Part shown: positions 1 to 26,954 of the stretch, piece by piece
How the letters are laid out: every line of letters starts with the position of its first letter
How positions within the stretch are numbered: the first letter of the stretch is position 1
Origin: Bdellovibrionales bacterium
Lineage (GTDB): Bacteria > Bdellovibrionota > Bdellovibrionia > Bdellovibrionales > UBA1609
Reading direction: 5' to 3'
Length of the DNA: 64,000 nt
Assembly (NCBI GenBank): GCA_965226095.1
Contig: OZ245336.1
Coordinates: 1,481,308-1,545,307, forward strand
Notes under the pieces: generated by a model
The model's input: only the letters and a program-made list of their open reading frames with translations
Told to the model about the DNA's origin: nothing
Databases searched by the model: none
Program-made: the position numbers and the translations under genes

Positions 1-94
1 GCGGAAGACTTAACATTTTGATAGATTGCTGTAATTGAGGATTCATCCTTAGCTTTTGAGCTAATTTAAAACCCATTTTTAATTGTGCTGACAT
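1..94 (-). CDS. rpoN: RNA polymerase sigma-54 factor, first 31 codons only (gene continues beyond left edge)
   Basis: Reverse strand ATG at 94-92, then MSAQLKMGFKLAQKLRMNPQLQQSIKMLSLP. This matches the Leu/Gln-rich region I signature of sigma-54 (xPQLQQxIKxLxL). Too short for the ORF track. Sigma-54 activators and a sigma-54 promoter occur elsewhere in the window. Confidence 0.6.
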   Translation of the reverse strand, partial: MSAQLKMGFKLAQKLRMNPQLQQSIKMLSLP

Positions 95-277
95 AAAAAA
101 CTCCAATGCTATCCTTAATTATCTTACACAGAATTTTGAAATAGTGAAAGTAAAAAAACTCTATCATTCATTGAGAAGGATAACACTTATAAAAAATCAA
201 CTTTTCAACCTATTTAATGGGATTAGTGACTGTAAAAAAGCCCTGAAAAACAAACAATGAAAAAAATTCACTGTGCT

Positions 278-2083: not shown

Positions 2084-4423
2084 TTAAAAGACAAATGGCA
2101 CACTCACTGAACCAATTTGTCCTTTTTGTAAACCTGTTCCTGTAAAACGCATGTTTTTTATCTTACTCATTATACAGCGAGCCAATACAGCACTGTTTGA
2201 TGTATTTTTCTTTGCTCTCACCTTTTGTACCCTCTCATTTATAATTTCCCATCCAACCAACACTGTACCTGAAATATCCGGATTATTCTGTCTAGCGGTA
2301 CTAATACAGGATTCCAGTGTATATTTATGCCGTCGAATCACTCGCAAAATAGCATCTCGATCAATACCTCCATCAACAGCCAGATCAGAAACTCCAACTT
2401 CCAACTGTACTGAACCTTTACTACCCAAACTGCCACCTCGACCAGTGCCTCTACCACCGCCACCTCGACCTCTTGTTTTGATACCTGCCGACGCACCTAA
2501 TAAAGCCGTACCTGTTCCACCAGCACCTGCATTTTTAAACTTTGTTCCAATACCATCTCCTTTATAAGAATCTTTTTGCCCGGCAAATCCCGTTGCCTGA
2601 TCCGCTAATCCTGCTAACTCCCCTGTACCGGAGTAAGCTTTATCCAATACAGTTTGAGTCCCTTTAGAACCAAATACCCCCAGCAAACCCATTTTAGTTG
2701 GATCCGGACGAGGAGGTTTAGGAGGAGCACCTGCTTTTTTAGTTTTTACTGATCCTCCAGGACGAGCAGAAGTGATCGTTTTTTTCTTGGATTTGGCTTT
2801 AGGCTTGGGAGCTACTTGAGCAAGTTTTCCGGCCTTGCTCGGTTTTTTAATTCCAGTGATTTTCTTTTTTGGAGCCTTTTTTATAGGTACAGAAAACTCT
2901 CTTTTCTTTCTTACTTTCTTGGCCATTTTTAAACGAACCGGTGGACGATATTTTTTCTTAAATTCAATAGTTACATTTCTGATACCTTCCTCTTCAAGAT
3001 CCTCTTTCGAATCTAAAAACTGAGGAGAAAACAAACCAATATAAAATACCAGAAGACACATAAAAAAACAGGACATCATAATACCTGTCATCTCCGATGC
3101 ACTAAAGTTAAATAGAGAACCCGTCAGTGCTGTTTGCACTCTATTGACGAAACGAACATATACACTTAAACAATTACCAAATTCCAATTTAATAAGTTGT
3201 TTTTGCTGTAAAGTCACACCACCTTGTGCATTCATTAAACCTTTGGACATTAATTGTTTTAAAGAATATTTACCCTGCTTATTAAATACTGTTGCTTGAA
3301 CACCATCAGATATACCAATATTCACACTACTGTTGATTTCCAATAAAGGGTATTTAGGTATACTCAATAAATTAGGTAAACAAATACTGGCTGTTGAATC
3401 GGATCCAAAACTGACTTCCTTTTCCTTATAAAAATGACTCATGTTAAGAATTCTTTCTTTCCAGGCAACAATAACTTCCACAATTGGACCACTTCCCAAG
3501 GATAAATTTTTATCCAAATCTTTAATAGAGCTGGGAGGGGCATAAGTTCCAAAATCAGCTGGACGAATTTCTTCAGCTTGCTGTTCCATAGAAGAATCCG
3601 ACAACTCCTGAAAAGAAGGTAAATCCTCAGGAATACCTTCAGTATTTATATTTTGCACAACTTCAGATGACTGAGCAGGAACCTGAAAAGAGGAGGATGG
3701 CGGTGGCGGCGGCTCAACATCTTGATCATCTTGAACCAACTTGGACGGTTTTATTGAAAATACAGGATCCTGTGGTACTTCTTCCTTTGATTCCACATCT
3801 AAAGGAAAAGTAGGGACCGCACTTTCTGAACTTACAGCACTTTCTGAACTTACAGGACTTTCTGAACTTACAGGAGTTTCTGAACTTACAGCACTTTCTG
3901 AACTTACAGGACTTTCTGAACTTACAGGAGTTTCTGAACTTACAGGAGTTTCTGAACTTACAGGAGTTTCTGAACTTACAGGAGTTTCTGAACTTACAGG
4001 AGTTTCTTCAACTGCTGGTATGGGAGCAACTTCCTCTGTTGTTTCCTCAGATTTCTCACTGATGAGTTCCTGGTCTTCGGAACTCTTTGGAGGTTGCTCA
4101 GGATCTGTACGAGCAAAAGGCACATTGATATAAAATTGAATATTAAAATTCCCAATAGTAATTTGATCTCCATGATTTAAAGGCTCTTCCAAAATTTTAT
4201 GACCATTCACAAAAGTTCCAGTCGGGGAACCAAGATCAGAAATATAATATCCTGCACCTCTTTTTTCAATTAAGGTATGCCAATAACACACACTGGGATC
4301 AGACAACACCAAAGAAGGGCCGTCCTGACTACTTCCAATACTTATTTGATCAGCAAAAAATTGTTTATTACAATAAAGCTTTCCTGATCGAAATACTTTT
4401 AAAAACAATGGCTGATTGGCCAA
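2084..4423 (-). CDS. FHA-domain / TonB-like membrane protein with AgmX/PglI-type C-terminal domain (GltG/NfsG-like)
   Basis: 779 aa. N-terminal FHA fold (ISIGSS...GYYISDLGSPTGTFVNGHKI...GDQITIGNFNIQF). Then an acidic Pro/Ser repeat linker, one TM (MTGIMMSCFFMCLLVFYIGLF) and a Lys/Pro/Gly-rich spacer. C-terminal TonB-like domain (IDRDAILRVIRRHKYTLESC...GTVLVGWEI). Confidence 0.7.
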   Translation of the reverse strand: MANQPLFLKVFRSGKLYCNKQFFADQISIGSSQDGPSLVLSDPSVCYWHTLIEKRGAGYYISDLGSPTGTFVNGHKILEEPLNHGDQITIGNFNIQFYINVPFARTDPEQPPKSSEDQELISEKSEETTEEVAPIPAVEETPVSSETPVSSETPVSSETPVSSETPVSSESPVSSESAVSSETPVSSESPVSSESAVSSESAVPTFPLDVESKEEVPQDPVFSIKPSKLVQDDQDVEPPPPPSSSFQVPAQSSEVVQNINTEGIPEDLPSFQELSDSSMEQQAEEIRPADFGTYAPPSSIKDLDKNLSLGSGPIVEVIVAWKERILNMSHFYKEKEVSFGSDSTASICLPNLLSIPKYPLLEINSSVNIGISDGVQATVFNKQGKYSLKQLMSKGLMNAQGGVTLQQKQLIKLEFGNCLSVYVRFVNRVQTALTGSLFNFSASEMTGIMMSCFFMCLLVFYIGLFSPQFLDSKEDLEEEGIRNVTIEFKKKYRPPVRLKMAKKVRKKREFSVPIKKAPKKKITGIKKPSKAGKLAQVAPKPKAKSKKKTITSARPGGSVKTKKAGAPPKPPRPDPTKMGLLGVFGSKGTQTVLDKAYSGTGELAGLADQATGFAGQKDSYKGDGIGTKFKNAGAGGTGTALLGASAGIKTRGRGGGGRGTGRGGSLGSKGSVQLEVGVSDLAVDGGIDRDAILRVIRRHKYTLESCISTARQNNPDISGTVLVGWEIINERVQKVRAKKNTSNSAVLARCIMSKIKNMRFTGTGLQKGQIGSVSVPFVF
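3819..4016 (-). repeat. 18-bp tandem repeat, 10 full units plus 1 degenerate, encoding (E-T/S-P/A-V-S-S)n inside the FHA/TonB-like gene
   Basis: Plus-strand units g(c/g)a(c/g)tttctgaacttaca repeat head-to-tail from 3819 to 3998, with a degenerate unit to 4016. The protein reads ETPVSSETPVSS...ESAVSS. Confidence 0.95.
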
Positions 4424-5608: not shown

Positions 5609-8600
5609 TCATAAAAAGTAACTGGCGAAACTGTTTGCCCTGTACTCAATGATGACTTATTATACTGGCTTAATTTATCCAAAGCTTTTTTGATCCATGT
5701 TGAATCATAATTATTTAATTGTTGAGATTTTTTGACAGCTAATTCATAGTTATTAACAGCCTCATTCTTAAAGGGTTCAACAGTTTTTTGAAGTCCTGCC
5801 TTATACTGCTGGATCTCTGCTTTATTTAAACCTCTAGGAATAGGTGAATTATAAATCGCATCACCAATATGATCAGAGGCAAGCCCAATTAAAACCAAAG
5901 ATGCAATCACTTGTTCTCCACTATCATAACGAATAACTTTCTTTAATTCCTCCTTCAGTCTGGCTAAGAGGGCAAGCTTTTCTTTAACAACTTTTTGTTG
6001 CAACCGAGGGCTAGCTGGAATTTTAATTTTAATGAATCGAAGATAAGTATCGTATACTTTTAAAAACTCTGCCTGAGCAGCATAGTGGACACCTACCTTA
6101 TATTTTTTATAAAGATTAACTGTTCTTTGATACCATACTTTAGATTGACTTATCTGACCTTTAGCTTTTTTAATTTCTGCAACTTTAAAAGCGGATTCCA
6201 CTAAAGCCCTATGATCAGAAGAACCTCTATTTAAGAATTGATTATAATAAGAAACTGCTTTGGTAATATGACCTCGACGCTTAAGCATTTCTGCCAATAA
6301 ATAAAGCGCTTGTGTTTTTTCCGCTTTTTTGGATTTTTTAAAGTACATTAAGTAGGCTTGCTCTGCCTGAGAATAGCGATTAAAACCATCATAGATCAAA
6401 GCTGAATTATACCAAAAATCTGCAGATACTTTATCATTAGGAAAAGCTTTAGCATAGGAAGAGAAAGCCTGAGCCGCCTTCATATATTGTCCCGTACTTT
6501 CGTAAATCCCCGGTGCTTCCTTTAATATGGATTGTTTTAATTTCTTACTGGTAGCTTTTCGACTTTGTAATACTCTATTATAGATAGACAGAGCTTTCAG
6601 CATATCACCACTTTCTTTATAATAAAATCCAGCATTATAGTAAGCGTTTAACCGTAAAGGGGACCCAGGATTATCATCTGCAAATCTCTGATACATCTCT
6701 GCTCCTTTAGCGTAATGTTTGTTTTTTACCATATCCTCAGCAGACTTTAATGCAATTTGAGAAATGATTTTTTGAATATCTTTTGCAGAAGGAGAACGAG
6801 CAATCGTCGGATTTTTTAATAACTGAACAGCCGCCTCTTTTAAAGCTACAAAATCTTTTTTCGTATTGTGAATATCTAAAATCAAATTAGCTGCATACTC
6901 AGTATATTTACTACGAGGATATTTTCTAACAATGTGCCAAAAATGATCCAAAGCATCCTTATGATGATTAAATTCATAATGAAACTCCCCTTTTTTATAT
7001 ATAATAGCCGGTATATTCGATTTAGAAGGAAAATGAGTGATATAGTAATCTGCCGCTTTCTGAAAAGTATGTATCGGTTGAGTAAAAGGAACAAACTCTG
7101 TTTTTTTATTCACTAATTTTTTAATCTGTTGAGAAGAAGGTAATACTTTTTCAAAAGCAAGCACACTGTTTAAACTGGCCAATGCATAGTACTGACTCCT
7201 GTTATAGTTTTCCGCGAGATATTGATAATACTTTCCAGCTTGTGCATATCTTCCAATATCAAAGAGAAGTTCTGCATGAAAAAAATGCATTTGATCCGAC
7301 TTCTTGGATTGTTTAAAATATTTATTATATAATTCATAGCCAAATAAAGCCTGGCCTTTTGCCACTTTATCTCTTGTCTTACGGTAAGATTGGTGCATCT
7401 GTAAAGCATAGTTTCTCACAGTACTTTCCATCAGTGTTCTAGCTTTCACCAAGATTTGTGGCTCATGTTTGTTCAGCTTGGCCCAATTACTCGTTGGACC
7501 AAATCTCTCTAACCAGTACCTAAGCTCCTTTAAAAAAAATTGTCTGTTACCAGCTGAAGTATAAGCACGAATAATCTGATATTGATAATCATAAGCTCTG
7601 GAAGAGTTAGGTTGTTCAGAAATTAACTGTTTGAATGTAATACGTACTCCCTTTAAATGACCAGAATCCAGATAAGCCTCCGCTAGCCGCTTTAACATCT
7701 TCATAGCTTGAACAGAACTACCAGACTTCTTTTCAAAATAAGATAGTGCCAAATTCGGACTTCTTGTAGAATGACTATAAAACAAAACTAAATCATTTAA
7801 AGCTTCTTTTGCAAAATGCACAATTCCAGCGGCTTGAACACTCATGTTACCTCTTGCTTTTTGACGATTCCCCTCTCTAATAATAGCTTCCATATTCACA
7901 AGCGCTCTATCCACCTGCCCAATGTTAAAGTAGCACCAAGCTAATTTATATAAAGCAAAAGAATAAATTTTTAAACGAGGGTTCTTAACAATTCTTCTAT
8001 AATAAGATAGTGCTTTTTTCCATTGAGATTGATTAAAATGATATTCCGCCAGTTCAAAATTTACATCAGTAATATATTCACTTCTTGGAAATTTTTTAAC
8101 CAGCCTCTCATAACTTTTTTTCCCATCAGTCAACCGACCTCTTTTAAAATAAGCAACACCTAAAAAAAACAAAACTTGATCTGTGTACTTATCTTTTGGA
8201 AATTGTCGGCGATAGGTTTCAAAAAGCTTAATCGATTTATCCACATACACAAAAGTGGACCTTAAATTAAGACGAGGTTTCTGAGCTCTTTGTTTTTTTA
8301 TAAATCTCTTTATATCCTGATCATATTTTTCATATAAACGGTATTCGATGAGACGTACTTTTTCAATATAGAGACTTCCCAATCTTAAACGTAAATCTCT
8401 ACGGGAACTGGTCTTAATCAAAGAAAATAATTGTTTAATTTCTGCGTTGATGACTTCCTCAAGAGCCGCTTCATCAGTGCCTTCTTCAAAGTACTGCCTG
8501 AATTGACGAGGTGGAGTAGCCACTTTAATGACCTGTCGCTTAATTCTACGAATAGTATCTTTGGACTTGGGAACTATGAGTTTTTTCCTTTGTAATCCAA

Positions 8601-17380: not shown

Positions 17381-18496
17381 CTAGAATGGATGACCAAAAG
17401 CCACTACAAAATTTGTTTGATCTTCACCTACACCAAATTCTATACGAATTTTTTTATTGTAGTCCGGCGGCAAGCCTAAACGAACACCACCTCCATAAGA
17501 ATACCTGGCTTTCAAAAGATCAAATTTTTTCTGTTCTTCATTATTCATATTGAAAAAATTATTAACAAATGATTTTTTCATCGCCGCAGCTCCCGCATCA
17601 AAAAATACTACAAAGCTCAAAAAGGAAAAAGGAGTATAGCGAAGTTCCAACTGTGATAAATAATACTGTTCACCATGAAAGCGATTCAAACGAAACCCTC
17701 TCAATGTATCCGGACCTCCCAATTGAAAACGAAACAAATAACTGGAAGATCTTACAAAAGTCGTACCTCCCTTAAACCTTACAGCCATGACAAGGTTATC
17801 TTTTGCAAAAGGAAAAAATAAACGCATATCCCCTTCCAAAAAGACTGGAGTGGGCCACTTGGTTCGGGCCCAGGTTCTGATTTCATAATACTCCCCTTTA
17901 TGAGGATTAAAATAATTGTCTCTGGAATCAAAACGAAGAAGAACACCTCCTCCAAAAGTCCATTCATCAGAAAAAACCTTCTGTTCATCTTTTTCCTTTC
18001 TATAGAGAAATTGAACGAATAAACCTGTAAACGTAGATGGACCGAGTGTAAATACATATTCCAACTGAGAGGACCATTTATTAGAGGGAATAATTTGTTG
18101 ATCCTCCGGTGTGGTATAACTACCTTGTCCATAATAAAAATCATGAAACCCGTCATACTCTGCAAAAAAATCCAGTTGAGAACCATTCTCCAGCCATCTT
18201 TGATAAGAATAGCTGGTGGAAAAAAAGAGATCTTTACTGAGTCTAACATCCAAAGCTGTGTAATAACCTATATCCCCGGTGGGGTAGACAAAAAGACGGA
18301 GACTGCCAACATGGCTAAAAGTAGCATTTCTGTAATAAGCGGGGATCACTCCAAGCTTTTGCTTTTTTTTATCTTTAGAGAAAAACCATGAAGGGCTTTC
18401 CTCTGTTTCTTCTGCAGCTATAGAGAAAGAACCCACTAAAGCAACAAAGAAGCAAAAAAATAATCTGATACCCAATAAATACAAGCGCACAAACAA
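17381..18496 (-). CDS. Omp85/D15-family outer-membrane beta-barrel protein without POTRA domains
   Basis: 371 aa with signal peptide. Has the GGPDTLRGF motif (Omp85 loop-6 RGF/Y type). Alternating aromatic strands and a terminal ...FGHPF. Confidence 0.55.
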   Translation of the reverse strand: MFVRLYLLGIRLFFCFFVALVGSFSIAAEETEESPSWFFSKDKKKQKLGVIPAYYRNATFSHVGSLRLFVYPTGDIGYYTALDVRLSKDLFFSTSYSYQRWLENGSQLDFFAEYDGFHDFYYGQGSYTTPEDQQIIPSNKWSSQLEYVFTLGPSTFTGLFVQFLYRKEKDEQKVFSDEWTFGGGVLLRFDSRDNYFNPHKGEYYEIRTWARTKWPTPVFLEGDMRLFFPFAKDNLVMAVRFKGGTTFVRSSSYLFRFQLGGPDTLRGFRLNRFHGEQYYLSQLELRYTPFSFLSFVVFFDAGAAAMKKSFVNNFFNMNNEEQKKFDLLKARYSYGGGVRLGLPPDYNKKIRIEFGVGEDQTNFVVAFGHPF

Positions 18497-18818
18497 CTCC
18501 TAAAAAGTTTCCTTCTACCTTTTATAAAATAACTTTCAGCAAAGATATGTTTTTATAAGCTCTTGTCAATTCAAAACAGGGGTTTTGAACGATTTATAAA
18601 TAACAAATTGCTCCATCTCTCGATTAAAAAACTTGCTTTATCAAAACATATTCTCATAAAACACATGTGAGCAATGGAAGTTAAAAAAAGACGAATTTCG
18701 TACTTTTCTGACAAAAAATACGAAACTCGAACAAAAAACAGGATTTAAATCTCTTTAGAGCTATGTCATGTATTTGCAGGATGCTTCTCCAGAACATAAA
18801 ATAGGAAAGGAGAAAACA

Positions 18819-20120
18819 ATGTTAACAAAAAAAATTAATACAAATACACAGCCTCGACATTTACATGGCTTTTTACGCTGGTCAGAAGATTCCCGTACAG
18901 AACAAAGAGAAATTACCTCCCTTATCAGCGTGGGTAGAGATCCAAACAATATGCTACAACTGGAGGATGACAGCGCTTCCCGTCGACATTGCCGTATTCA
19001 AAAACAAGAAAATGAAGGATTTATTTTACAGGACATGAATAGTAAAAACGGCACATTCTTAAATGGCAGTCGAGTCTTCAAAGCTTTATTAAAAAATAAT
19101 GATCATATTCAAATAGGAAATAAAGAATTTATTTTTTCATTTGAACGCTTTGACCAAAATGAAAATATCCATATAAAAAGCAAAAACACTTATTGGAGCC
19201 AACAACTCAGTACTTTGCCCAATATAGCGACGAATAATATGCCAGTACTTATTACAGGTCCCTCAGGTACCGGTAAGGAAATATTGGCTAAACTGATTCA
19301 CCGTTATTCCCATAGAAGCAAAGGCCCCATGATTTCCATCAACTGTAGTGCTGTATCAGAGTCACTCATAGAAAGTGAATTCTTCGGTCACTTAAAAGGT
19401 AGTTATACCGGCGCGCTCACTCATCGAAGCGGGGCTTTTATGGCCGCTAAAGGAGGATCCCTCTTTTTGGATGAAATTGGGGACCTGTCCTTACATCTAC
19501 AACCCAAACTACTCAGAGCTTTGGAATACCAGGAAATCAAACCTGTTGGCGCTGATCGTATGCAAAAAACAGATGTTCGAATCATCGCCGCCACTCACCA
19601 AAATTTACAGGAAAAAGTTGCTAAAAAAACTTTCCGTGCCGACTTATATTTTCGACTCAATGTCTTAAACCTCTCACTCCCTCACCTGAAAGACAGAATG
19701 GAAGACTTTGATAATCTACTTGCCTTTTTCTGTACCATGTACAACACTTCCTTTTCTCCATCCAGTATTCGTCAAATGAAGGAACACTCATGGCCAGGTA
19801 ATATCAGAGAATTAAAAAACACCGTTGCCAGAGCTAAAGCTCTTTTCTCAAATAAAATGATCGATAATAAAATGTTGCCACAGTTAATTTCGACCCCTAT
19901 TTCACCTGCTGAAGCCTATATGAGTTCAGAAGAACTATCAGAAAAATTTTCTGAATCACCATCTATTATAAAAAAAATAGAAAAAAACATGATCATAGAA
20001 AACTTGAAGAAACATAAAGGCAGACAAAGCAAAGTAGCGGAAGAATTGAATATTCCCAAAAGCACTTTAGCCGGTCGAATGAAAAAGTATGGTATTAATC
20101 CTAACCACTATAAGAAGTGA
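18819..20120 (+). CDS. sigma-54-dependent transcriptional activator with N-terminal FHA domain
   Basis: ATG at 18819 lies 6 nt after aaaggag. FHA core (SVGRDPNNMLQLEDDSASRRHCRI...NSKNGTFLNGSRV). AAA+ motifs GPSGTGKE, GAFMAAKGGSLFLDEIG, and ESEFFGH (the GAFTGA-loop region). C-terminal Fis-type HTH (KVAEELNIPKSTLAGRMKKYGI). Confidence 0.9.
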   Translation: MLTKKINTNTQPRHLHGFLRWSEDSRTEQREITSLISVGRDPNNMLQLEDDSASRRHCRIQKQENEGFILQDMNSKNGTFLNGSRVFKALLKNNDHIQIGNKEFIFSFERFDQNENIHIKSKNTYWSQQLSTLPNIATNNMPVLITGPSGTGKEILAKLIHRYSHRSKGPMISINCSAVSESLIESEFFGHLKGSYTGALTHRSGAFMAAKGGSLFLDEIGDLSLHLQPKLLRALEYQEIKPVGADRMQKTDVRIIAATHQNLQEKVAKKTFRADLYFRLNVLNLSLPHLKDRMEDFDNLLAFFCTMYNTSFSPSSIRQMKEHSWPGNIRELKNTVARAKALFSNKMIDNKMLPQLISTPISPAEAYMSSEELSEKFSESPSIIKKIEKNMIIENLKKHKGRQSKVAEELNIPKSTLAGRMKKYGINPNHYKK

Positions 20121-20284
20121 TTACAGCTGAATATAAATCACTACTTCTCTATTTTAAAATTTATTTGAAGTGAGATTTATACTTCATAGCTATATCATTT
20201 TGTAAAAACAACGAAATTTAAATCTTTTGTACGAGATTCGTTTTTATTATTTTCAACCACTATATTTTTTTCAGTTTTTCAGTC

Positions 20285-20300
20285 TGGCACGGAATTTGCT
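20285..20300 (+). promoter_or_regulatory. sigma-54 (-24/-12) promoter TGGCACGGAATTTGCT
   Basis: Exact match to TGGCACG-N4-TTGCW with correct GG-N10-GC spacing. Lies 61 nt upstream of the ATG at 20361 and 165 nt downstream of the FHA-EBP gene. Confidence 0.75.
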
Positions 20301-20360
20301 AGTATATAAAATACAGCAATTATGTTATTGTTTAATTATAAAGATGTAAGGAGTTCATTC

Positions 20361-20927
20361 ATGTCCAAAAACATAGAACAAAGTACACTCTACTTTAAAG
20401 AAATGTGTAGAGATACACAGGAGTTGAAAAAACAAATAAAGGAAATGGCGCATAGCTTGAAAATCAGTGGACAAGAAACCGATCGGCAACTTAGAAGAAC
20501 AGAAGCTCTATTCAACACCCAATGGGGAAAACTTATGGAAACTTTAGTGGAAGGGGATTTATTAAAGCTACTTAAACAAAAAAATATAGTAGTGGATGAC
20601 ACCACCATGAATATGAAAGGCCAGCATAAGGGAGAGGATTGGGAGATCGACATTTTAGCCAGCAATGGAGAGGAGATTGTTTTAGTGGAAGTAAAAACGA
20701 CTTTAAAAATTCAACATGTAAAGGATTTTCTTTATAAGCTAAAAAGATTCACCACCTGGAAGCCAAAATATAAAGATGATAAAATATATGGAGCTGTGGC
20801 TTATTTAAAGGAAGATCAAAGCTCAGCAAAGTATGCTGAAAAGCAGGGCTTGTTTGTCATTCGAGCCACCGGAAGTAGCTCCAGTATTATTAACAAGAAA
20901 AATTTTAAACCAAAAATATTTTCATAA
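20361..20927 (+). CDS. PD-(D/E)XK (restriction-endonuclease-like) fold protein with N-terminal coiled coil
   Basis: ATG at 20361 lies 8 nt after aaggag; the ORF-track start at 20322 is less likely. Core WEIDILASNGEEIVLVEVKTTL fits the D...(D/E)xK nuclease motif. No family name is claimed. Confidence 0.45.
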   Translation: MSKNIEQSTLYFKEMCRDTQELKKQIKEMAHSLKISGQETDRQLRRTEALFNTQWGKLMETLVEGDLLKLLKQKNIVVDDTTMNMKGQHKGEDWEIDILASNGEEIVLVEVKTTLKIQHVKDFLYKLKRFTTWKPKYKDDKIYGAVAYLKEDQSSAKYAEKQGLFVIRATGSSSSIINKKNFKPKIFS

Positions 20928-21014
20928 GCCCCTTTTCTATGTACTTTAGAGCTCACTTTTTTGTAAGCATGTCCTCTAAGTTCCACAATCTAAATAATTA
21001 TTTTCAAGACAAGT

Positions 21015-22913
21015 TTATTCCACAGTGACAGACTTGGCTAAATTGCGTGGCTGATCCACATTATGCCCTAAAGATACAGCCGTATGGTAGGCCATTAACT
21101 GTAATGGTATGGCACTTAAAATTGCCAACAAATCATCTTCAGCAGAAGGTAAAGAAATAAAATGCTCTGATAATGCAGAAGCGGTGGAATTCGCTTGAGA
21201 ACCAATCAAAATCAATCGAGCTTTTCTGGCTTTAGCTTCCTGTAAACTCGTCAACGTTTTTTTATACAATAAATTATTTACAGCAGAGGGAAGTAAACCC
21301 ACCACAGCCATTTTGTCATCTATTAAAGCCAAAGGACCATGCTTCATTTCACCAGCAGGATACCCCTCAGCCAACTTGTAAGTGAGCTCTTTCATCTTTA
21401 AAGCCCCTTCCAAAGCCAAAGGATACTGCACACCCCTGCCTAAATAAATAAAACCATGAAAAGTATTTAATAGCTCTGCCAAATCTGCAATGGATGATTC
21501 CTGCTGTAAAACCTGTCTCATCTGAGTAGACAAACCCAAAAGGTTTTTTATTTGTTCTTCTTCTGCCTCAGTAGAAAGAGAATTTTGTTTTTTAGCCAAG
21601 ACCAAAGCCAGTAAATATAAAACCAGTAAAGTGCAGGTAAAAGCTTTTGTACTGGCCACTCCTTTTTCCAAGCCTGCAAACATCTGTAAGCCCAGATCCG
21701 ATTCTCTCACTAAAGTGGAATGATCCACATTACACAAACTTAAAACCGGACAGGTTTTGATGTTTGTCATCTTCAACACAGCCAAGGTATCCGCCGTCTC
21801 ACCGCTCTGAGAAATCAATAGTACCGGTGTCTTCTCAGCAACTAGCACTGGATCACGATAACGAAATTCACTGGAGATATCTATTTCCACCGGAATACGC
21901 GCCCACTTTTCAATCACATATTTTCCATAAACAGCCGCATAGTAACTACTACCACAAGCAACAATACAAAGCCTGCGCACTTTCAACAAATGATCCAAAA
22001 ACCCCTTGCTGTCACCACCTGTCCATTGCAAATTAAGTTCATCCTTACACAAATGCTGAGACAAAAGGTGCTCCACACAAGCGGGTTGTTCATGAATCTC
22101 CTTTAACATATCAAAAGCATAAGAATTGTGTTTGTTCTCTTTATTTTTACCATCATTTCTTATGGCAGCCATAGATAAAGTCTCTATGGCTTTATGAATT
22201 TTCGTAAATGACTTTGCCGAATCCTTTTTGGAATAAAAATCCACATCACCGGATTTATGCACATGAGTCACTTCTCCATCCTGTAAAAAAACCACTTGCC
22301 TTGTGTAAGGTAGAAGTGCCTGCGCATCACTGGCAATAAAGACCTCTTTATTTTCTGCCTCCCCAAAACCCAAAAGCAAAGAAGGACCTTTTTTAAAAGC
22401 CCAGAACTCCCCTGGAGCTTTCTCTGACATAACAACAACAGCATACTCCCCTTTTATGAGAGCCAGAGTTTCGAAAACCGCTGTTTTCAAAGAACCGGAT
22501 TTTTCATATAAATCAGCTAAGATAAAAGCCACCACTTCTGTATCCGTTTCAGAAGTGAATTGAGAAAGATTTTTTTCTGTCAACCCGGCTTTTAGTTCTT
22601 CAGCATTCTCAATCACTCCATTGTGAACAATGTAAATAGATCCGGCTTTATGAGGATGAGCATTATTTTCAGAAGGAGCACCATGTGTCGCCCATCGAGT
22701 GTGCCCCATCGCCCAATGACCTTTATATTCTCCTTGAGCTATTTTATCCTCTAAATTTTTTAAAAGACCTTTGGTTCGTACTCTTTGAAAACCTGATTTT
22801 GTAGCCACTACTACACCAGCGCTGTCATAACCTCTGTACTGCAAACGACGAAGTCCTTGAAGCAACACCTCTTTACTATCTCGAAAGCCTGTATAAGCTA
22901 CAATACCACACAT
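21015..22913 (-). CDS. glmS: glutamine--fructose-6-phosphate aminotransferase (isomerising)
   Basis: 632 aa. Begins MCGIVAY (Ntn Cys). Two SIS domains. Ends ...NLAKSVTVE. Confidence 0.97.
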   Translation of the reverse strand: MCGIVAYTGFRDSKEVLLQGLRRLQYRGYDSAGVVVATKSGFQRVRTKGLLKNLEDKIAQGEYKGHWAMGHTRWATHGAPSENNAHPHKAGSIYIVHNGVIENAEELKAGLTEKNLSQFTSETDTEVVAFILADLYEKSGSLKTAVFETLALIKGEYAVVVMSEKAPGEFWAFKKGPSLLLGFGEAENKEVFIASDAQALLPYTRQVVFLQDGEVTHVHKSGDVDFYSKKDSAKSFTKIHKAIETLSMAAIRNDGKNKENKHNSYAFDMLKEIHEQPACVEHLLSQHLCKDELNLQWTGGDSKGFLDHLLKVRRLCIVACGSSYYAAVYGKYVIEKWARIPVEIDISSEFRYRDPVLVAEKTPVLLISQSGETADTLAVLKMTNIKTCPVLSLCNVDHSTLVRESDLGLQMFAGLEKGVASTKAFTCTLLVLYLLALVLAKKQNSLSTEAEEEQIKNLLGLSTQMRQVLQQESSIADLAELLNTFHGFIYLGRGVQYPLALEGALKMKELTYKLAEGYPAGEMKHGPLALIDDKMAVVGLLPSAVNNLLYKKTLTSLQEAKARKARLILIGSQANSTASALSEHFISLPSAEDDLLAILSAIPLQLMAYHTAVSLGHNVDQPRNLAKSVTVE

Positions 22914-22923
22914 ACCAGGCCCC

Positions 22924-24318
22924 TTAACTCACTGGTTTTTTTTCATCAGATCTTTTCTTGGTAAAATAATTCTGTAAATTATTTTGCCGAGAACGCCCCA
23001 CACCCAGTGAACGAGCAGGTACATTTTCCGTAATGACTGAACCAGCTCCCGTTGCTGATTCTTCTGCCAACACCACTGGCGCCACTAACTGGGTGCCACT
23101 TCCCACAAACACCTTATCTTTAATTGTCGTGGAATATTTTTTACCATCCAGATTCAAATTGGAAGTAATAGTTCCACACCCGATATTGACATCCTCTCCG
23201 ACTTGCGCATCCCCTAAATAGGAAAAATGACCCGCCTTGGAACGATCGCCAAATTGAGTTTTTTTCATTTCCACAAAGTTACCCACTCGACATTTTTGAC
23301 CTATTTGTGTACCTCGCCTTAAACGGGCATAAGGACCAAGCACAGACTGCGCCTTCACTTCCACTGCCTCCAAATAACAACCGGCTCGCACTAAAACCAA
23401 CTCATGAATTAAACTGTCTGAAATAAAACAATGCGGCTCTATCGCACAAAAAGAACCAATAGCGGTTTTTCCTTTTAAATACACCCCTGGGTAAATCACA
23501 CTGCCCTGACCTACTTGCACATCCTCTTCAATGTAAGTATTCAAAGCATCAATAATAACTACTCCTTTTTGCATGAGTTGATTGAGCTTTGCTGTAAAAA
23601 TCTGTTTTGTGGCAAGAGCTAACTCTCGTTGAGAGTTTACTCCGTAAGCTGTTTGCTCCGATACAGTAAAACTACTAATTTTTTTATTATTCGTTGCAAA
23701 CAAAGTTACGATATCTGTTAAACAAAATTCCTCTTTAGGATTTTTATTATCGATCTGAGATAAAAAAAGATTTAAAGACTGGTTTTTAAAAAGGTAGATC
23801 CCCGTATTGATCTCATTAATTTTTTCTGATTCATGACTTAAAGATTCTTTTTCTGCAATAGCCACAATGTTGTCTTTTTTACGAATAATCCTGCCATAGT
23901 GACCAGGTTTTTCCTTTTCAAAAGTGCCAATACATAAGTCCGCTTGCTCCTGATGAAACACCTTAATCATTTCCTGTAGATCTTTTGGTTGAATCAATGG
24001 ATGATCGCCATTCACAATCAATATATCGCCTTTACTGCTGGCCGGTTGAGCACTCATCACCGCCACGGCTGTTCCTTTGCGATTTTCCTGAAAACTTATA
24101 CTGGCCTTGAAAGCTTCAGCCACCGGTCGCATTAAATGCTCATGTTCCTCATTAATAACCACACAAGTGTCTACCACACCTGAAGCCTTTAAAGCCTGCA
24201 AAATACGTGCCAAGACAGGTTTTCCCGCCACTGGGTGTAAACTCTTAGGCAAGGACGTTCGCATTCTGCTTCCCCGACCTGCCGCCAAAACAATAGCTGT
24301 GATAAATGATGAAGCCAT
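22924..24318 (-). CDS. glmU: bifunctional UDP-N-acetylglucosamine diphosphorylase / glucosamine-1-phosphate N-acetyltransferase
   Basis: LAAGRGSRM nucleotidyltransferase motif and C-terminal left-handed beta-helix hexapeptide repeats. ATG at 24318 is preceded by ggggaaag. The ORF-track start at 24354 is a TTG 12 codons upstream. Confidence 0.93.
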   Translation of the reverse strand: MASSFITAIVLAAGRGSRMRTSLPKSLHPVAGKPVLARILQALKASGVVDTCVVINEEHEHLMRPVAEAFKASISFQENRKGTAVAVMSAQPASSKGDILIVNGDHPLIQPKDLQEMIKVFHQEQADLCIGTFEKEKPGHYGRIIRKKDNIVAIAEKESLSHESEKINEINTGIYLFKNQSLNLFLSQIDNKNPKEEFCLTDIVTLFATNNKKISSFTVSEQTAYGVNSQRELALATKQIFTAKLNQLMQKGVVIIDALNTYIEEDVQVGQGSVIYPGVYLKGKTAIGSFCAIEPHCFISDSLIHELVLVRAGCYLEAVEVKAQSVLGPYARLRRGTQIGQKCRVGNFVEMKKTQFGDRSKAGHFSYLGDAQVGEDVNIGCGTITSNLNLDGKKYSTTIKDKVFVGSGTQLVAPVVLAEESATGAGSVITENVPARSLGVGRSRQNNLQNYFTKKRSDEKKPVS

Positions 24319-24502: not shown

Positions 24503-25408
24503 GTGACAATACAAAAAAAAACCAAGAGCAGTGATGAATTATCACAAAAAAAACAACTACTACAAAATTTACAAAGTGTACTATGGCTGATCTGGGAGGC
24601 TCAAAGTACAGAACAATTACTTAAAATCATGGAATACACTTTACCTAAATTGTGTCAGGTGGATTCCATTAACATCCCCAGCAACAGTCTCAAAAAAAAT
24701 AAAAAAATCTATCAATACTCTTTTACATACAAAGAACAATTTATACATTTCTATAAATCTTCTGGATTTGTTCATGGACAAAAGTGGTTTTTAAAAAAAG
24801 CCGGAGAATTTTTGGAAAAAGCTTTTCAACGCCTGGAAATACATAATCAACTTAAAAAACAAAAGGAACAATGGGAGTTGGCTTTTGACACCATTGCCAC
24901 ACCCATCAGCCTCACTGATTCCAATGGAGCTATATTGAAGACCAATAAAACCTTTCGCACTAAAACAAAAATGTCCAAGGCAGAACTATCACAGAAAAAC
25001 TGTTTTCAAGTTTTCTTCGGGAAACCTCTAACCGGAAATAAACGTGAAACTCGAATCGTTAATGGAAAAACAGAATGTTATGAAATTTTTCTTCAACAAA
25101 TTCCACAAAAAAATACAACTATTCAATTAGTGGTTTTAAGGGATATTACCAAACAAATCCATATAGAGAAACAACTGGCTCATCATGCTCAATCCAAAGA
25201 GATGAGTATAATTTCCAGAAGTATTGCTCACGAATTAAATAATCCTATTAGCGGTATCATCGCTATTTTGCAAACAATGATAATGAATAATACACTGAAA
25301 GACCAAACCAAAACAGATTTGGATCAAATGCTACTGGCTGGTCAAAGATGCTCTCAGATAATCAATAAATTTTTAAACATCTCTTACGAAACTTCACTGA
25401 AGTCTTGA
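24503..25408 (+). CDS. PAS + HisKA (DHp) sensor-kinase fragment lacking the HATPase_c domain
   Basis: 301 aa. PAS-like WELAFDTIATPISLTDSNGAILKTNKTF. H-box SRSIAHELNNPISGI. The ORF stops about 50 aa after the H-box, and only 115 bp remain before the next gene. Confidence 0.6.
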   Translation: MTIQKKTKSSDELSQKKQLLQNLQSVLWLIWEAQSTEQLLKIMEYTLPKLCQVDSINIPSNSLKKNKKIYQYSFTYKEQFIHFYKSSGFVHGQKWFLKKAGEFLEKAFQRLEIHNQLKKQKEQWELAFDTIATPISLTDSNGAILKTNKTFRTKTKMSKAELSQKNCFQVFFGKPLTGNKRETRIVNGKTECYEIFLQQIPQKNTTIQLVVLRDITKQIHIEKQLAHHAQSKEMSIISRSIAHELNNPISGIIAILQTMIMNNTLKDQTKTDLDQMLLAGQRCSQIINKFLNISYETSLKS

Positions 25409-25523: not shown

Positions 25524-26954
25524 ATGCAAAAAAAAATTCTTATTATTGATGATGAAGTTACTCTGAATCACTCTCTCACGAAAGTGCTGAATCACCACGG
25601 CTATATTACAAAAAGCCTAAAATCCAAACAAGAATTTAGTGAACTGAAACAAAATTTTCACTATGACATAGTTTTATTAGATCTCAGACTCCCGGATGGC
25701 AATGGATTGGAATTGATGAAACAAATAAAACAATTTAATCAAAATACTCAAGTCATTGTTATGACTGGTTACGGAACCATTGAGTTGGCAGTGACTGCAA
25801 CAAAACAGGGAGCTTTCCATTTTATTACCAAGCCTTTTAACCTAGGTGAAATTATCAATCTATGTGCTAAGGCACTTTCCCAATCCCAATTGGAAACTGA
25901 AAATGCGCAACTGAGATTTGTTGTAAAGAAACAATTTCATTTTAATCAAATTATTGGACAAAGCCAACCCCTCCTATCAGTCATTGAAATGATAAAAAAA
26001 ATATCTGCTTCTTTATCTACTGTATTGATCACAGGAGAAAGTGGTACTGGAAAAGAACTCATTGCCAAATCCATTCACTTTAATTCCCAGCAAAGTACAG
26101 GACCTTTTATTCCTGTCCACTGCGGAGCTATACCAAAAGATTTACTGGAAAGCGAACTGTTCGGACATATAAAAGGCTCTTTTACAGGAGCTATTAAAGA
26201 TCGCATCGGACGATTTCAAATGGCTGAAAACGGAAGTTTATTCCTGGATGAAGTGAGTACTATGGACATTTCCACACAAATTAAACTGCTTAGAGTTTTA
26301 CAGGAAAAAGAATTTCAACCAGTGGGCGGTGATGAAATTATACAGTCTAATTCCCGTGTGATTGCCGCCAGTAATGAAAATCTGGAAACAGCTGTTAAAA
26401 GAGGTGATTTCAGAGAAGATCTGTTTTACCGTCTTAATGTTATTCCTCTTCCTATCCCTTCTTTAAGAGAACGAAAAGATGATATTCCCCTTCTGATCAA
26501 TCATTTTATAAAAGCATTCAATAAAAACAACTCCCCCCATAAAATAAACTACATCAACCAGGAAGTGATGGATTGTCTTTGTCAATATAGGTGGCCTGGC
26601 AATATCAGAGAGCTGGAGAACCAGATTGAGCGATTATGTGTTCTAAAAGAGAATGAATGCATAGAACTGTCTGATTTACCTGAACAATATCAAAATAATA
26701 ATCATTCCACCATTAAGCCTACTGTGGATATACCACAGACAGGGCTGGATTTTAATCACATCGTTAATGTATTTGAAAATGAACTGATTTTAAAAGCTCT
26801 TGAAAGAACCAGATGGAATCGTAATCAAGCCGCCAGATTATTAAAATTAAATCGCACCACTTTACTGGAAAAAATTAAAAAGAAGGGTTTAAAAGAGAAC
26901 ATGCCTTCTATACTGCCTGACGATTTCTCTTCAGTAACTAACAAGTCAATTTAA
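25524..26954 (+). CDS. NtrC-family sigma-54-dependent response regulator (REC-AAA+-Fis HTH)
   Basis: REC domain (ILIIDDE...DIVLLDLRLPDG...KPF). AAA+ motifs GESGTGKE, ESELFGH and GSFTGA, LFLDEV. C-terminal HTH QAARLLKLNRTTLLEKIKK. Confidence 0.93.
   Translation: MQKKILIIDDEVTLNHSLTKVLNHHGYITKSLKSKQEFSELKQNFHYDIVLLDLRLPDGNGLELMKQIKQFNQNTQVIVMTGYGTIELAVTATKQGAFHFITKPFNLGEIINLCAKALSQSQLETENAQLRFVVKKQFHFNQIIGQSQPLLSVIEMIKKISASLSTVLITGESGTGKELIAKSIHFNSQQSTGPFIPVHCGAIPKDLLESELFGHIKGSFTGAIKDRIGRFQMAENGSLFLDEVSTMDISTQIKLLRVLQEKEFQPVGGDEIIQSNSRVIAASNENLETAVKRGDFREDLFYRLNVIPLPIPSLRERKDDIPLLINHFIKAFNKNNSPHKINYINQEVMDCLCQYRWPGNIRELENQIERLCVLKENECIELSDLPEQYQNNNHSTIKPTVDIPQTGLDFNHIVNVFENELILKALERTRWNRNQAARLLKLNRTTLLEKIKKKGLKENMPSILPDDFSSVTNKSI

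Follow-up and report, generated by a model that had tools for sequence, protein, structure and literature searches.

Does an FHA-domain activator switch on the nuclease-fold gene beside it through the sigma-54 promoter that lies between the two? We examined this question in a window of 64,000 nt from a Bdellovibrionales bacterium (C1:1481308-1545307; the genome is one contig of 1.547 Mb, 35% G+C), in which the gene for an FHA-AAA+-helix-turn-helix (HTH) activator is followed by the -24/-12 site TGGCACGGAATTTGCT and by the gene for a 188-amino-acid (aa) protein of the DUF8196 family (Table 1). An earlier note, made from the letters of this DNA, had proposed that the three form a phosphothreonine-gated switch for a nuclease, perhaps in a stress, DNA-damage or anti-phage response, and had suggested a genome-wide scan for sigma-54 promoters, a search for a kinase and a phosphatase, and a check of the conservation of the trio. 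We propose, with rather less than even confidence, that a cassette bearing its own sigma-54 promoter was inserted beside a core FHA activator, and that this activator would drive the nuclease gene.

A consensus sigma-54 site precedes the DUF8196 gene and is retained in most cassettes of the genus

The 16-mer upstream of the DUF8196 gene fits TGGCACG-N4-TTGCW at 12 of 12 specified positions, with exactly 10 nt from GG to GC. It is intergenic and correctly oriented; the stop codon of the activator gene (20120) lies 165 nt to its left and the ATG (20361) 61 nt to its right. The earlier reading of an exact consensus between the activator gene and the 188-aa open reading frame (ORF) holds; transcription would start at ~20311. 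Two sites with at most one mismatch were found in the window compared to 0.38 expected. Genome-wide, five perfect sites were present, whereas 30 block shuffles that preserved composition gave 0.1 on average and 1 at most, a 50-fold enrichment, and 12 more sites had one mismatch. A second perfect 16-mer, TGGCACGTATTTTGCA, is located at 24197-24212 on the minus strand inside the glmU coding sequence (where it codes for LARILQA), upstream of glmS; this site may be a chance match arising from coding constraint or an internal promoter.

The machinery for sigma-54 transcription is encoded in the same genome. The single rpoN gene of this genome begins close to the left edge of the window (~94-106, minus strand), where the earlier note had placed it, and its product has an intact sigma-54 DNA-binding domain (Sigma54_DBD, E = 5e-57). 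Domain searches identified five sigma-54 activators in the genome, the FHA protein included.

In the copies of this genome and of its close relatives, the DUF8196 gene is the last element of a cassette that consists, in order, of an inverted repeat with a T-run, the -24/-12 element, a leader, a ribosome-binding site (AAGGAG at 20348-20353 in the window) and the gene. The inverted repeat has the form ACGAAT(T/C)TCG...N8-11...ACGAGATTCGT followed by T5-6, and the leader reads AAAATACA..AATTATG(C/T)TATT(G/A)T. The distance from repeat to -24/-12 is 40-60 nt and reaches up to ~200 nt at loci with insertions of small palindromic repeats. When the intergenic regions of four syntenic loci (the window, L076, L077 and L078) were aligned, the invariant columns clustered in the right arm of the repeat, in the promoter and in the leader. 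Within the promoter, the GG, A, G and TTTGCT positions (GG.A.G....TTTGCT) were invariant; its N4 spacer and flanks varied, with indels, and large indels also separated the loci in the spacer between repeat and promoter.

We then tabulated 17 cassettes from five genus genomes and several metagenomic relatives. GG-N10-GC was present in 13 of them, at -64 to -77 from the ATG, with TGGCACGGAATTTGCT, GGGAACGGAATTTGCT, GGGCACGATTTTTGCT, TGGCATGGTTTTTGCT, TGGCACGGATTTTGCA and AGGCATGGATTTTGCA as examples, and was retained in the G012 and G014 copies despite proteins that are only 48-56% identical to that of the window. Because these 13 cassettes keep GG-N10-GC while their proteins diverge to ~50% identity, the -24/-12 promoter is probably functional, and the comparison indicates that the site is under selection. 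In the remaining four cassettes the GG has been lost (TAGAAC once, GT(A/G)CAT three times), with leader and genes intact.

The GG-less cassettes bear on a second reading of the same DNA, in which the -24/-12 element is of minor importance and sigma-70 transcribes the gene from CTGGCA-17-TAAAAT (20284-20312) and/or from TGTTATTGT (20323-20331). This reading accommodates several observations. All 17 cassettes have the element TGnTA(T/C)(T/C)(A/G)T, which precedes the ATG by 27-39 nt and keeps a constant distance to the ribosome-binding site, with variation at the n position that fits an extended -10 element, and in the window and L078 (C/T)TGGCA stands 17 nt before the conserved TAAAAT. In addition, no sigma-54-like site was found upstream of DUF8196 genes at any of 80 loci from other lineages, a result that led us to reject sigma-54 control as a general property of the family: it is a speciality of the genus. 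Nevertheless, L076 and L077 retain the GG, which sigma-70 does not need, despite poor -35-like hexamers (AGGGAA and AGGGCA), and neither the exact 10-nt spacing from GG to GC in 13 cassettes nor the genome-wide excess of perfect sites is accounted for by sigma-70. We regard sigma-70 as improbable as the principal route of expression. Basal sigma-70-dependent transcription of the DUF8196 gene appears likely from the conserved leader, and would explain the intact genes in copies lacking the GG.

Public sponge-metagenome runs share words with the locus. The public runs that contain it (X1-X4) assembled into fragmented unitigs and showed flat, DNA-like depth across genes and spacers, and run searches returned no RNA runs covering the locus.

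The 188-aa product is predicted to be a nuclease

The protein carries a precomputed annotation as a member of PF26618 (DUF8196), as do most of its homologues, and a large protein collection holds 2067 relatives. The local Pfam copy has no PF26618 model, and searches of local Pfam and NCBIfam gave sub-threshold matches only, to Hjc, DUF234, DUF4143, NERD and YraN. We rejected the archaeal Holliday junction resolvase Hjc as an identity, since the match to PF01870 scored 19.6 bits compared to a cut-off of 21.1 and the match to the NCBIfam Hjc model 18.7 compared to 70. A literature search found no paper that mentions DUF8196.

The earlier note had recognized a PD-(D/E)XK-like core, and the motif that it quoted is present as E95-I-D97 ... 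E110-V-K112. In an alignment of 39 homologues, E60, E95 and D97 were invariant and E110 and K112 were present in at least 90% (E...D...ExK); the C-terminal core was very conserved, and the N-terminal region varied in length and contained KETDRxxKE-like repeats. An AlphaFold2 model with a mean predicted local distance difference test score of 79.7 (86-97 from residue 61 onward when averaged over 10-residue blocks) showed an alpha/beta core preceded by two long helices. Foldseek matched this core to the nuclease domains of Cdn1, Can2 and Card1 and to AF1548, EndoMS/NucS, R.BspD6I, the R2 endonuclease domain and McrC, at E-values of 2e-4 to 1e-2 and a probability of ~1.0; for Cdn1, AF1548, Can2, EndoMS and Card1 the probability was 1.0. 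Model, structural matches and conserved residues confirm the PD-(D/E)XK fold with an intact E..D..ExK at the level of structure prediction, and the product is a predicted nuclease.

Of these structural neighbors, Can2 and Card1 are CRISPR ancillary effectors that join a nuclease domain to a CARF sensor. PADLOC likewise gave a match to CARF_PDDEXK (2.5e-9), confined to the nuclease part (model positions 202-307 of 361). We rejected an identity as a CARF-nuclease effector of the Can2 or Card1 kind, since the CARF part of the models did not align; no CARF or other sensor or partner domain was found in the 188-aa protein, whose N-terminus is a helical stalk. Whether the query was the protein alone or a profile, sequence searches of solved structures matched designed coiled coils to the stalk only and gave no match to the core. 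The locus has no neighboring defense genes, and no DUF8196 homologues were found in phage and plasmid collections, so we rejected a phage or plasmid origin of the gene. With no partner domain, no defense neighbors and no phage or plasmid homologues, the DNA-damage or anti-phage role suggested earlier found no evidence.

The FHA activator is older than the cassette

Pfam recovered all three domains of the proposed FHA-AAA+-HTH architecture, together with an AAA_lid_14 domain. The FHA domain has the phosphothreonine-binding signature GR...SxxH, which is retained in 116 of 120 orthologues, and the translation contains Walker A and Walker B motifs (GPSGTGKE and LFLDEIG). Orthologues of the activator start with MLT(Q/K)K, and the block at the predicted promoter of the gene, tatttgcaggatgcttctccagaacataaa, is conserved in L076-L079. 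The genome also has two genes for Hanks-type kinases, at genome positions 1007239-1008030 and 473766-474341, one for a PP2C phosphatase and eight FHA domains; none of these adjoins the activator gene.

The activator and the DUF8196 gene differ in their distribution. Each of the 41 related genomes searched has one full-length copy of the activator (44-72% identity), those without DUF8196 included, whereas DUF8196 is present in 14 of the 41, in 1 to 20 copies each. Outside the lineage, DUF8196 occurs in metagenome-assembled genomes (MAGs) labelled Arenicellales, Ca. Poriferihabitaceae, Ca. Multivorans, Thermoanaerobaculia and Spirochaetia, and further in Bacteroidales, Saprospiraceae and Methanospirillum; these proteins are ~50% identical and often have several copies per genome. 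From this distribution we take the DUF8196 family to be accessory, horizontally spread and multi-copy. The copies in the genome of the window, only some of them intact (Table 1), are 70-80% identical to each other.

The surroundings of the activator gene point in the same direction. In the usual layout of the genus its neighbors are an Omp85-like gene, transcribed divergently, on one side and glmS, in convergent orientation, on the other. Because the activator gene directly abuts glmS in other members of the genus (G002 and G013), we read this abutment as ancestral and the DUF8196 gene as an insertion. In the window the order is activator, DUF8196 gene, (ankyrin gene), glmS. L077 and L078 have the activator, the DUF8196 gene and an ankyrin-repeat gene, with glmS next in L078, and L076 has the same layout by sequence. 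The activators of these closest relatives sharing the insertion are 86-89% identical to that of the window. L079 has a different gene downstream of the activator and neither the cassette nor its inverted repeat.

A nuclease gene between activator and glmS is thus restricted to the window and three close relatives. The trio of activator, promoter and nuclease is conserved in the window, L076, L077 and L078 and absent elsewhere in the genus, and we rejected a genus- or order-wide conservation of the activator-nuclease adjacency. The idea that the pair is a dedicated regulon unit does not survive this comparison, given an activator that is core in 41 of 41 genomes and an adjacency confined to a narrow sub-clade.

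A cassette related to that of the window was also detected in a second host sample (run X3, organism B). Over 20300-21200, contigs of this run match the window from 20300 rightwards at ~99% identity, and 18400-20279 had no match at 95% identity or more. Because the matches begin only at 20300, the cassette of organism B therefore has a different left flank.

Inverted repeats provide a plausible link between cassette and activator

Beyond adjacency, the only evidence that links the cassette to the activator is an inverted repeat that the cassette shares with the upstream region of the activator gene. Repeats of the ACGA(A/G)nTTCGT type were found genome-wide only in DUF8196 cassettes, before two PDDEXK_2 genes and upstream of the activator gene, and the ACGAAnnTCG type was likewise confined to the cassettes and the region upstream of that gene. 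Folding of the repeat upstream of the activator gene is stronger on the minus strand (-18.9 kcal/mol, z = -6.4) than on the plus strand (-9.7 kcal/mol), and a terminator-like site was called there on the minus strand at 18729-18692. Most genus members have an equivalent element in this position before their activator orthologue, and across the genus a palindrome pair, TTCGGA-N1-2-TCCGAA, is found at the same position upstream of activator orthologues. G001 and G008 each contain the genus-type palindrome TTCGGAnTCCGAA only once in exact form, upstream of the activator gene.

At the cassette of the window, the corresponding repeat is degenerate and folds weakly (-4 kcal/mol); its equivalents in relatives fold at -12.7 and -15.6 kcal/mol. 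We consider it a candidate insulating terminator and/or activator binding site. The center of the cassette repeat is located ~80-100 nt before the predicted transcription start, and ~80-100 nt upstream is the usual position of an upstream activating sequence. In the genome that holds both L034 and L076, the activator-adjacent copy retains the GG, while both copies at the rpoN locus have lost it. It is plausible from these features that the neighboring FHA activator drives the DUF8196 promoter, an assignment to which we give a little under an even chance and which is the weakest link in our account.

A number of observations weigh against this account. The activator, present in all 41 relatives, predates the cassette, and because it is also present in genomes without DUF8196, its primary targets must lie elsewhere. 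Its adjacency to a nuclease gene is absent outside the sub-clade. The sigma-54 site is itself apparently dispensable in some copies, since GG-less copies persist. The palindrome of the G012 and G014 cassettes, AAACCCnnnGGGTTT, differs from the type that precedes the activator gene. The palindrome TTCGGA-N1-2-TCCGAA belongs, in G006 and G010, to an intergenic repeat of ~200 nt that occurs dispersed, with 27 and 15 exact copies, respectively, and shared palindromes may reflect the spread of such repeats rather than a regulon. In addition, the inverted repeat resembles a common intrinsic terminator. Finally, the sigma-54 contact loop of the activator (19398-19415) reads GSYTGA rather than GAFTGA, as it does in 87 of 90 scorable orthologues, and the other four activators of the genome have G(S/A)FTGA, with phenylalanine. 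Since HrpS is an active natural activator with a GAYTGA loop (PMC3105312), the GSYTGA variant would by analogy be compatible with function. As for the repeat, a terminator directly upstream of the sigma-54 promoter could sensibly insulate the gene of a nuclease that may be toxic, and the roles of terminator and binding site are compatible with each other.

Several of these points also speak for a rival reading, in which the sigma-54 promoter is functional but driven by one of the four remaining activators, with the adjacency of the FHA gene accidental. A candidate for this role is a 340-aa PspF-like protein without a sensor domain (172324-173178). With five activators in the genome, the prior for each is about one fifth; the FHA activator is core and older than the cassette, the palindrome type that precedes its gene is missing from the G012 and G014 cassettes, and other cassette copies are scattered far from it. 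On the other hand, the related inverted repeat is limited to cassettes and the upstream region of this activator, synteny is retained in four genomes, and the copy adjacent to the activator (L076) has kept the GG that both rpoN-locus copies of the same genome (L034) have lost. We consider control by another activator unlikely, albeit the most serious competitor of control by the FHA protein.

In a further alternative, for which the dispersal of the palindrome in G006 and G010 speaks, the repeats are not regulatory but are recombination or insertion ends of a mobile cassette, recognized by a recombinase or by the nucleases themselves, with the promoter as a passenger. The cassette of the second intact copy begins directly past the stop codon of the upstream gene, and in L034 DUF8196 copies lie downstream of rpoN behind a tyrosine recombinase gene or its remnant. 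Moreover, the protein of the window is closest to an rpoN-locus copy in L034 and not to the activator-adjacent copy in L076, which suggests exchange between sites. However, the cassettes showed neither terminal inverted repeats nor target-site duplications around them, paralogues that are 70-80% identical have not moved recently, and no recombinase lies near the copies in the genome of the window. The element upstream of the activator gene is also positionally conserved across the genus, unlike a mobile end. We regard the mobile-end interpretation as very unlikely.

In L034 itself, a 140-nt segment from the 3' end of the recombinase gene is duplicated before two DUF8196 cassettes (3700-3840 and 8320-8470), one cassette lying behind the intact tyrosine recombinase gene and the other behind a remnant. 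This arrangement hints that recombinase and cassette once moved together.

We also asked whether the recognition helix of the activator co-varies with the half-sites of the palindrome (STLAGR with CGAA, STLSER with CGGA). This pairing was suggestive for G000 and G007, and it was not relied on; the sites of the sub-clade are half-site hybrids (ACGGATTTCGT), which undercuts it. In genomes without expansions, one-mismatch matches to genus-type palindromes near sigma-54 promoters occurred at control level.

Bringing control by the FHA activator together with the insertion, we would arrange the events as follows. The cassette would have been inserted between the activator gene and glmS in an ancestor of this strain and its closest relatives. 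Sigma-54 holoenzyme would bind the -24/-12 element in a closed complex, and the inverted repeat would block read-through from the activator gene and act as an upstream activating sequence. The neighboring FHA activator may bind this repeat, which is the least secure step, and binding of its FHA domain to phosphothreonine on a target of one of the two Hanks-type kinases would switch the activator. The proximal sigma-70-type element would supply basal expression.

Other carriers of the repeat and remaining features of the locus

The two PDDEXK_2 (Rpn/YhgA-like) genes that share the inverted repeat are located at 947868-948773 and 555415-556455, both on the minus strand. They have -24/-12-like sites, TAGCACGCTTTTTGCA and GGGAATCATTTTTGCA, 45-60 nt past the repeat; the cassette leader is absent. 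An inverted repeat with a -24/-12-like site is in this sense a portable module common to at least two nuclease families.

Different arrangements were observed elsewhere in the genus. The cassettes of G012 and G014 (L005, L006, L019, L020 and L032) have two to three tandem units of ~60 nt before good sigma-54 promoters; each unit holds AAACCC-N3-GGGTTT, and the last abuts the -24 element. The repeats of G006 (L056-L075) and G010 precede PDDEXK_2 genes, comM/yifB, small lipoprotein genes and the FHA activator gene, and many of the copies end in a TTTTGCA element without the -24 GG.

A broader version of control by the FHA activator is that it runs a phosphothreonine-gated sigma-54 regulon of recombination-type nucleases (DUF8196, PDDEXK_2 and perhaps recA), which we hold to be highly improbable. 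Such a regulon would be a signal-switched program of recombination, diversification or DNA-damage response in a host-associated bacterium with a genome full of variable surface-protein cassettes. No match to a LexA DNA-binding domain was found in the genome. A sigma-54-like site, TGGAACGAATTTTGCT, lies at C1:108274-108289 on the plus strand, 108 nt before recA and inside the 3' end of a cinA-like gene; its GG is retained in G002, G008 and G007 and lost in G001, G003, G004 and G010. We rejected recA as a conserved sigma-54 target, since the site is in coding sequence and the GG is present in only 4 of ~10 genus members.

The second enhancer-binding protein noticed earlier in the window was likewise found (Table 1). 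A histidine-kinase-like ORF adjoining its gene (24503-25408) has PAS and HisKA domains and gave no match to an ATPase domain.

Table 1. Coordinates of the locus, its predicted control elements and further DUF8196 copies. Window positions, except for rows marked genome.
Feature	Position	Strand	Details
Inverted repeat upstream of activator gene	18692-18736	.	ACGAATTTCGTA-N14-TACGAAACTCGA; minus strand: 17-bp hairpin, then T7
Sigma-70-type promoter of activator gene (predicted)	18773-18802	+	TTTGCA/TTGCAG, 17-18 nt, TAAAAT
FHA-AAA+-HTH activator	18819-20120	+	433 aa from ATG 18819; ORF open from 18768 (450 aa)
FHA domain	18924-19118	+	PF00498, E = 9.8e-20, residues 53-117 of 450-aa ORF
AAA+ sigma-54 interaction domain	19185-19673	+	PF00158 Sigma54_activat, E = 4e-63
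Fis-type HTH_8	19971-20090	+	PF02954, E = 1.6e-10; recognition helix STLAGRMKKY
Cassette 5' boundary, degenerate inverted repeat and T-run	20211-20246	+	ACGAAATTT...ACGAGATTCGT; invariant block AATCTTTTGTACG..ATTCGT.TTT, four syntenic loci
Sigma-54 promoter (predicted)	20285-20300	+	TGGCACGGAATTTGCT; -24 TGGCAC / -12 TTGCT; consensus match and conservation
Leader with two sigma-70-like elements	20307-20331	+	motif search and conservation
TAAAAT	20307-20312	+	17 nt after CTGGCA (20284-20312)
Extended -10-like TGnTATTGT	20323-20331	+	TGTTATTGT
DUF8196 gene, 188 aa	20361-20927	+	PF26618; nuclease core by model
N-terminal helical stalk	residues 1-73		model and alignment
PD-(D/E)XK core	residues 80-176		model and alignment
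Catalytic candidate E60	20538-20540	+	
Catalytic candidates E95/D97	20643-20651	+	
Catalytic candidates E110/K112	20688-20696	+	
Second activator	25524-26954		REC-AAA+-HTH domains
DUF8196 copy, internally deleted (genome)	556.9 kb		
DUF8196 copy broken by stop codon (genome)	near 778.5-779.1 kb		
Second intact DUF8196 copy (genome)	782705-783322	minus	
DUF8196 5' remnant (genome)	1453780		

Discussion

The regulatory design considered here is of a known kind, and an FHA input is itself not new. FHA-domain sigma-54 enhancer-binding proteins are reportedly found in Myxococcus xanthus (Jelsbak, Givskov & Kaiser 2005, PNAS, reference 91 in PMC12288465), so a phosphothreonine-gated sigma-54 switch is less unfamiliar than the earlier note, which called it no textbook regulon, had supposed. 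The Myxococcus proteins share the N-terminal FHA domain, the AAA+ domain and the C-terminal Fis-type HTH, with a presumed Ser/Thr kinase input, and the two lineages, Myxococcota and Bdellovibrionota, are related (former delta-proteobacteria). Unlike Myxococcus, the present genome is a 1.55-Mb host-associated one with a single FHA activator and a GSYTGA loop, and instead of developmental genes the candidate target is a cassette for an accessory nuclease.

The arrangement of the repeats recalls the psp system of E. coli, in which a sigma-70-driven activator gene has inverted-repeat sites upstream and similar sites lie upstream of the sigma-54 promoter. As with PspF, inverted repeats are located upstream of the activator's own gene and ~80-100 nt before a sigma-54 promoter. 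PspF differs in lacking a sensor domain, in being controlled by PspA and in having a divergent target; here the target is downstream and co-directional, and binding is only predicted. RtcR, beside rtcBA, is similar as a sigma-54 activator with a sensor other than a receiver domain that neighbors genes for nucleic-acid enzymes. The RtcR model matched the AAA+ part of the activator at 289 bits, below its equivalog cut-off of 650, and RtcR has a CARF sensor and an RNA ligase and cyclase as targets, in contrast with the PD-(D/E)XK protein here.

With respect to the nuclease, the protein of the window is a DUF8196 member among the coiled-coil PD-(D/E)XK proteins of the DUF8196 / DUF3782 group (PF26618 / PF12644). 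The nuclease domains of Can2, Card1 and Cdn1, as well as AF1548 and EndoMS, superimpose on its core, while the 188-aa protein has no CARF domain and a stalk of variable length. The Rpn / YhgA-like PDDEXK_2 "transposase" family is likewise a multi-copy PD-(D/E)XK group, of which two members here have the same upstream module, although the two belong to different Pfam families with no detectable sequence relation beyond fold class.

What is new in this locus is an uncharacterized accessory nuclease family as a candidate target, together with a portable module of repeat, promoter and leader. If the link to the FHA activator is true, it would provide the first regulatory handle on DUF8196, a large family that is multi-copy in many uncultured bacteria and whose hosts include MAGs named as sponge symbionts. 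Potentially toxic accessory nucleases would then be held under the tight off-state of sigma-54 and wired to Ser/Thr-kinase signaling, and a portable inverted repeat, promoter and leader could draw different accessory genes into one regulon.

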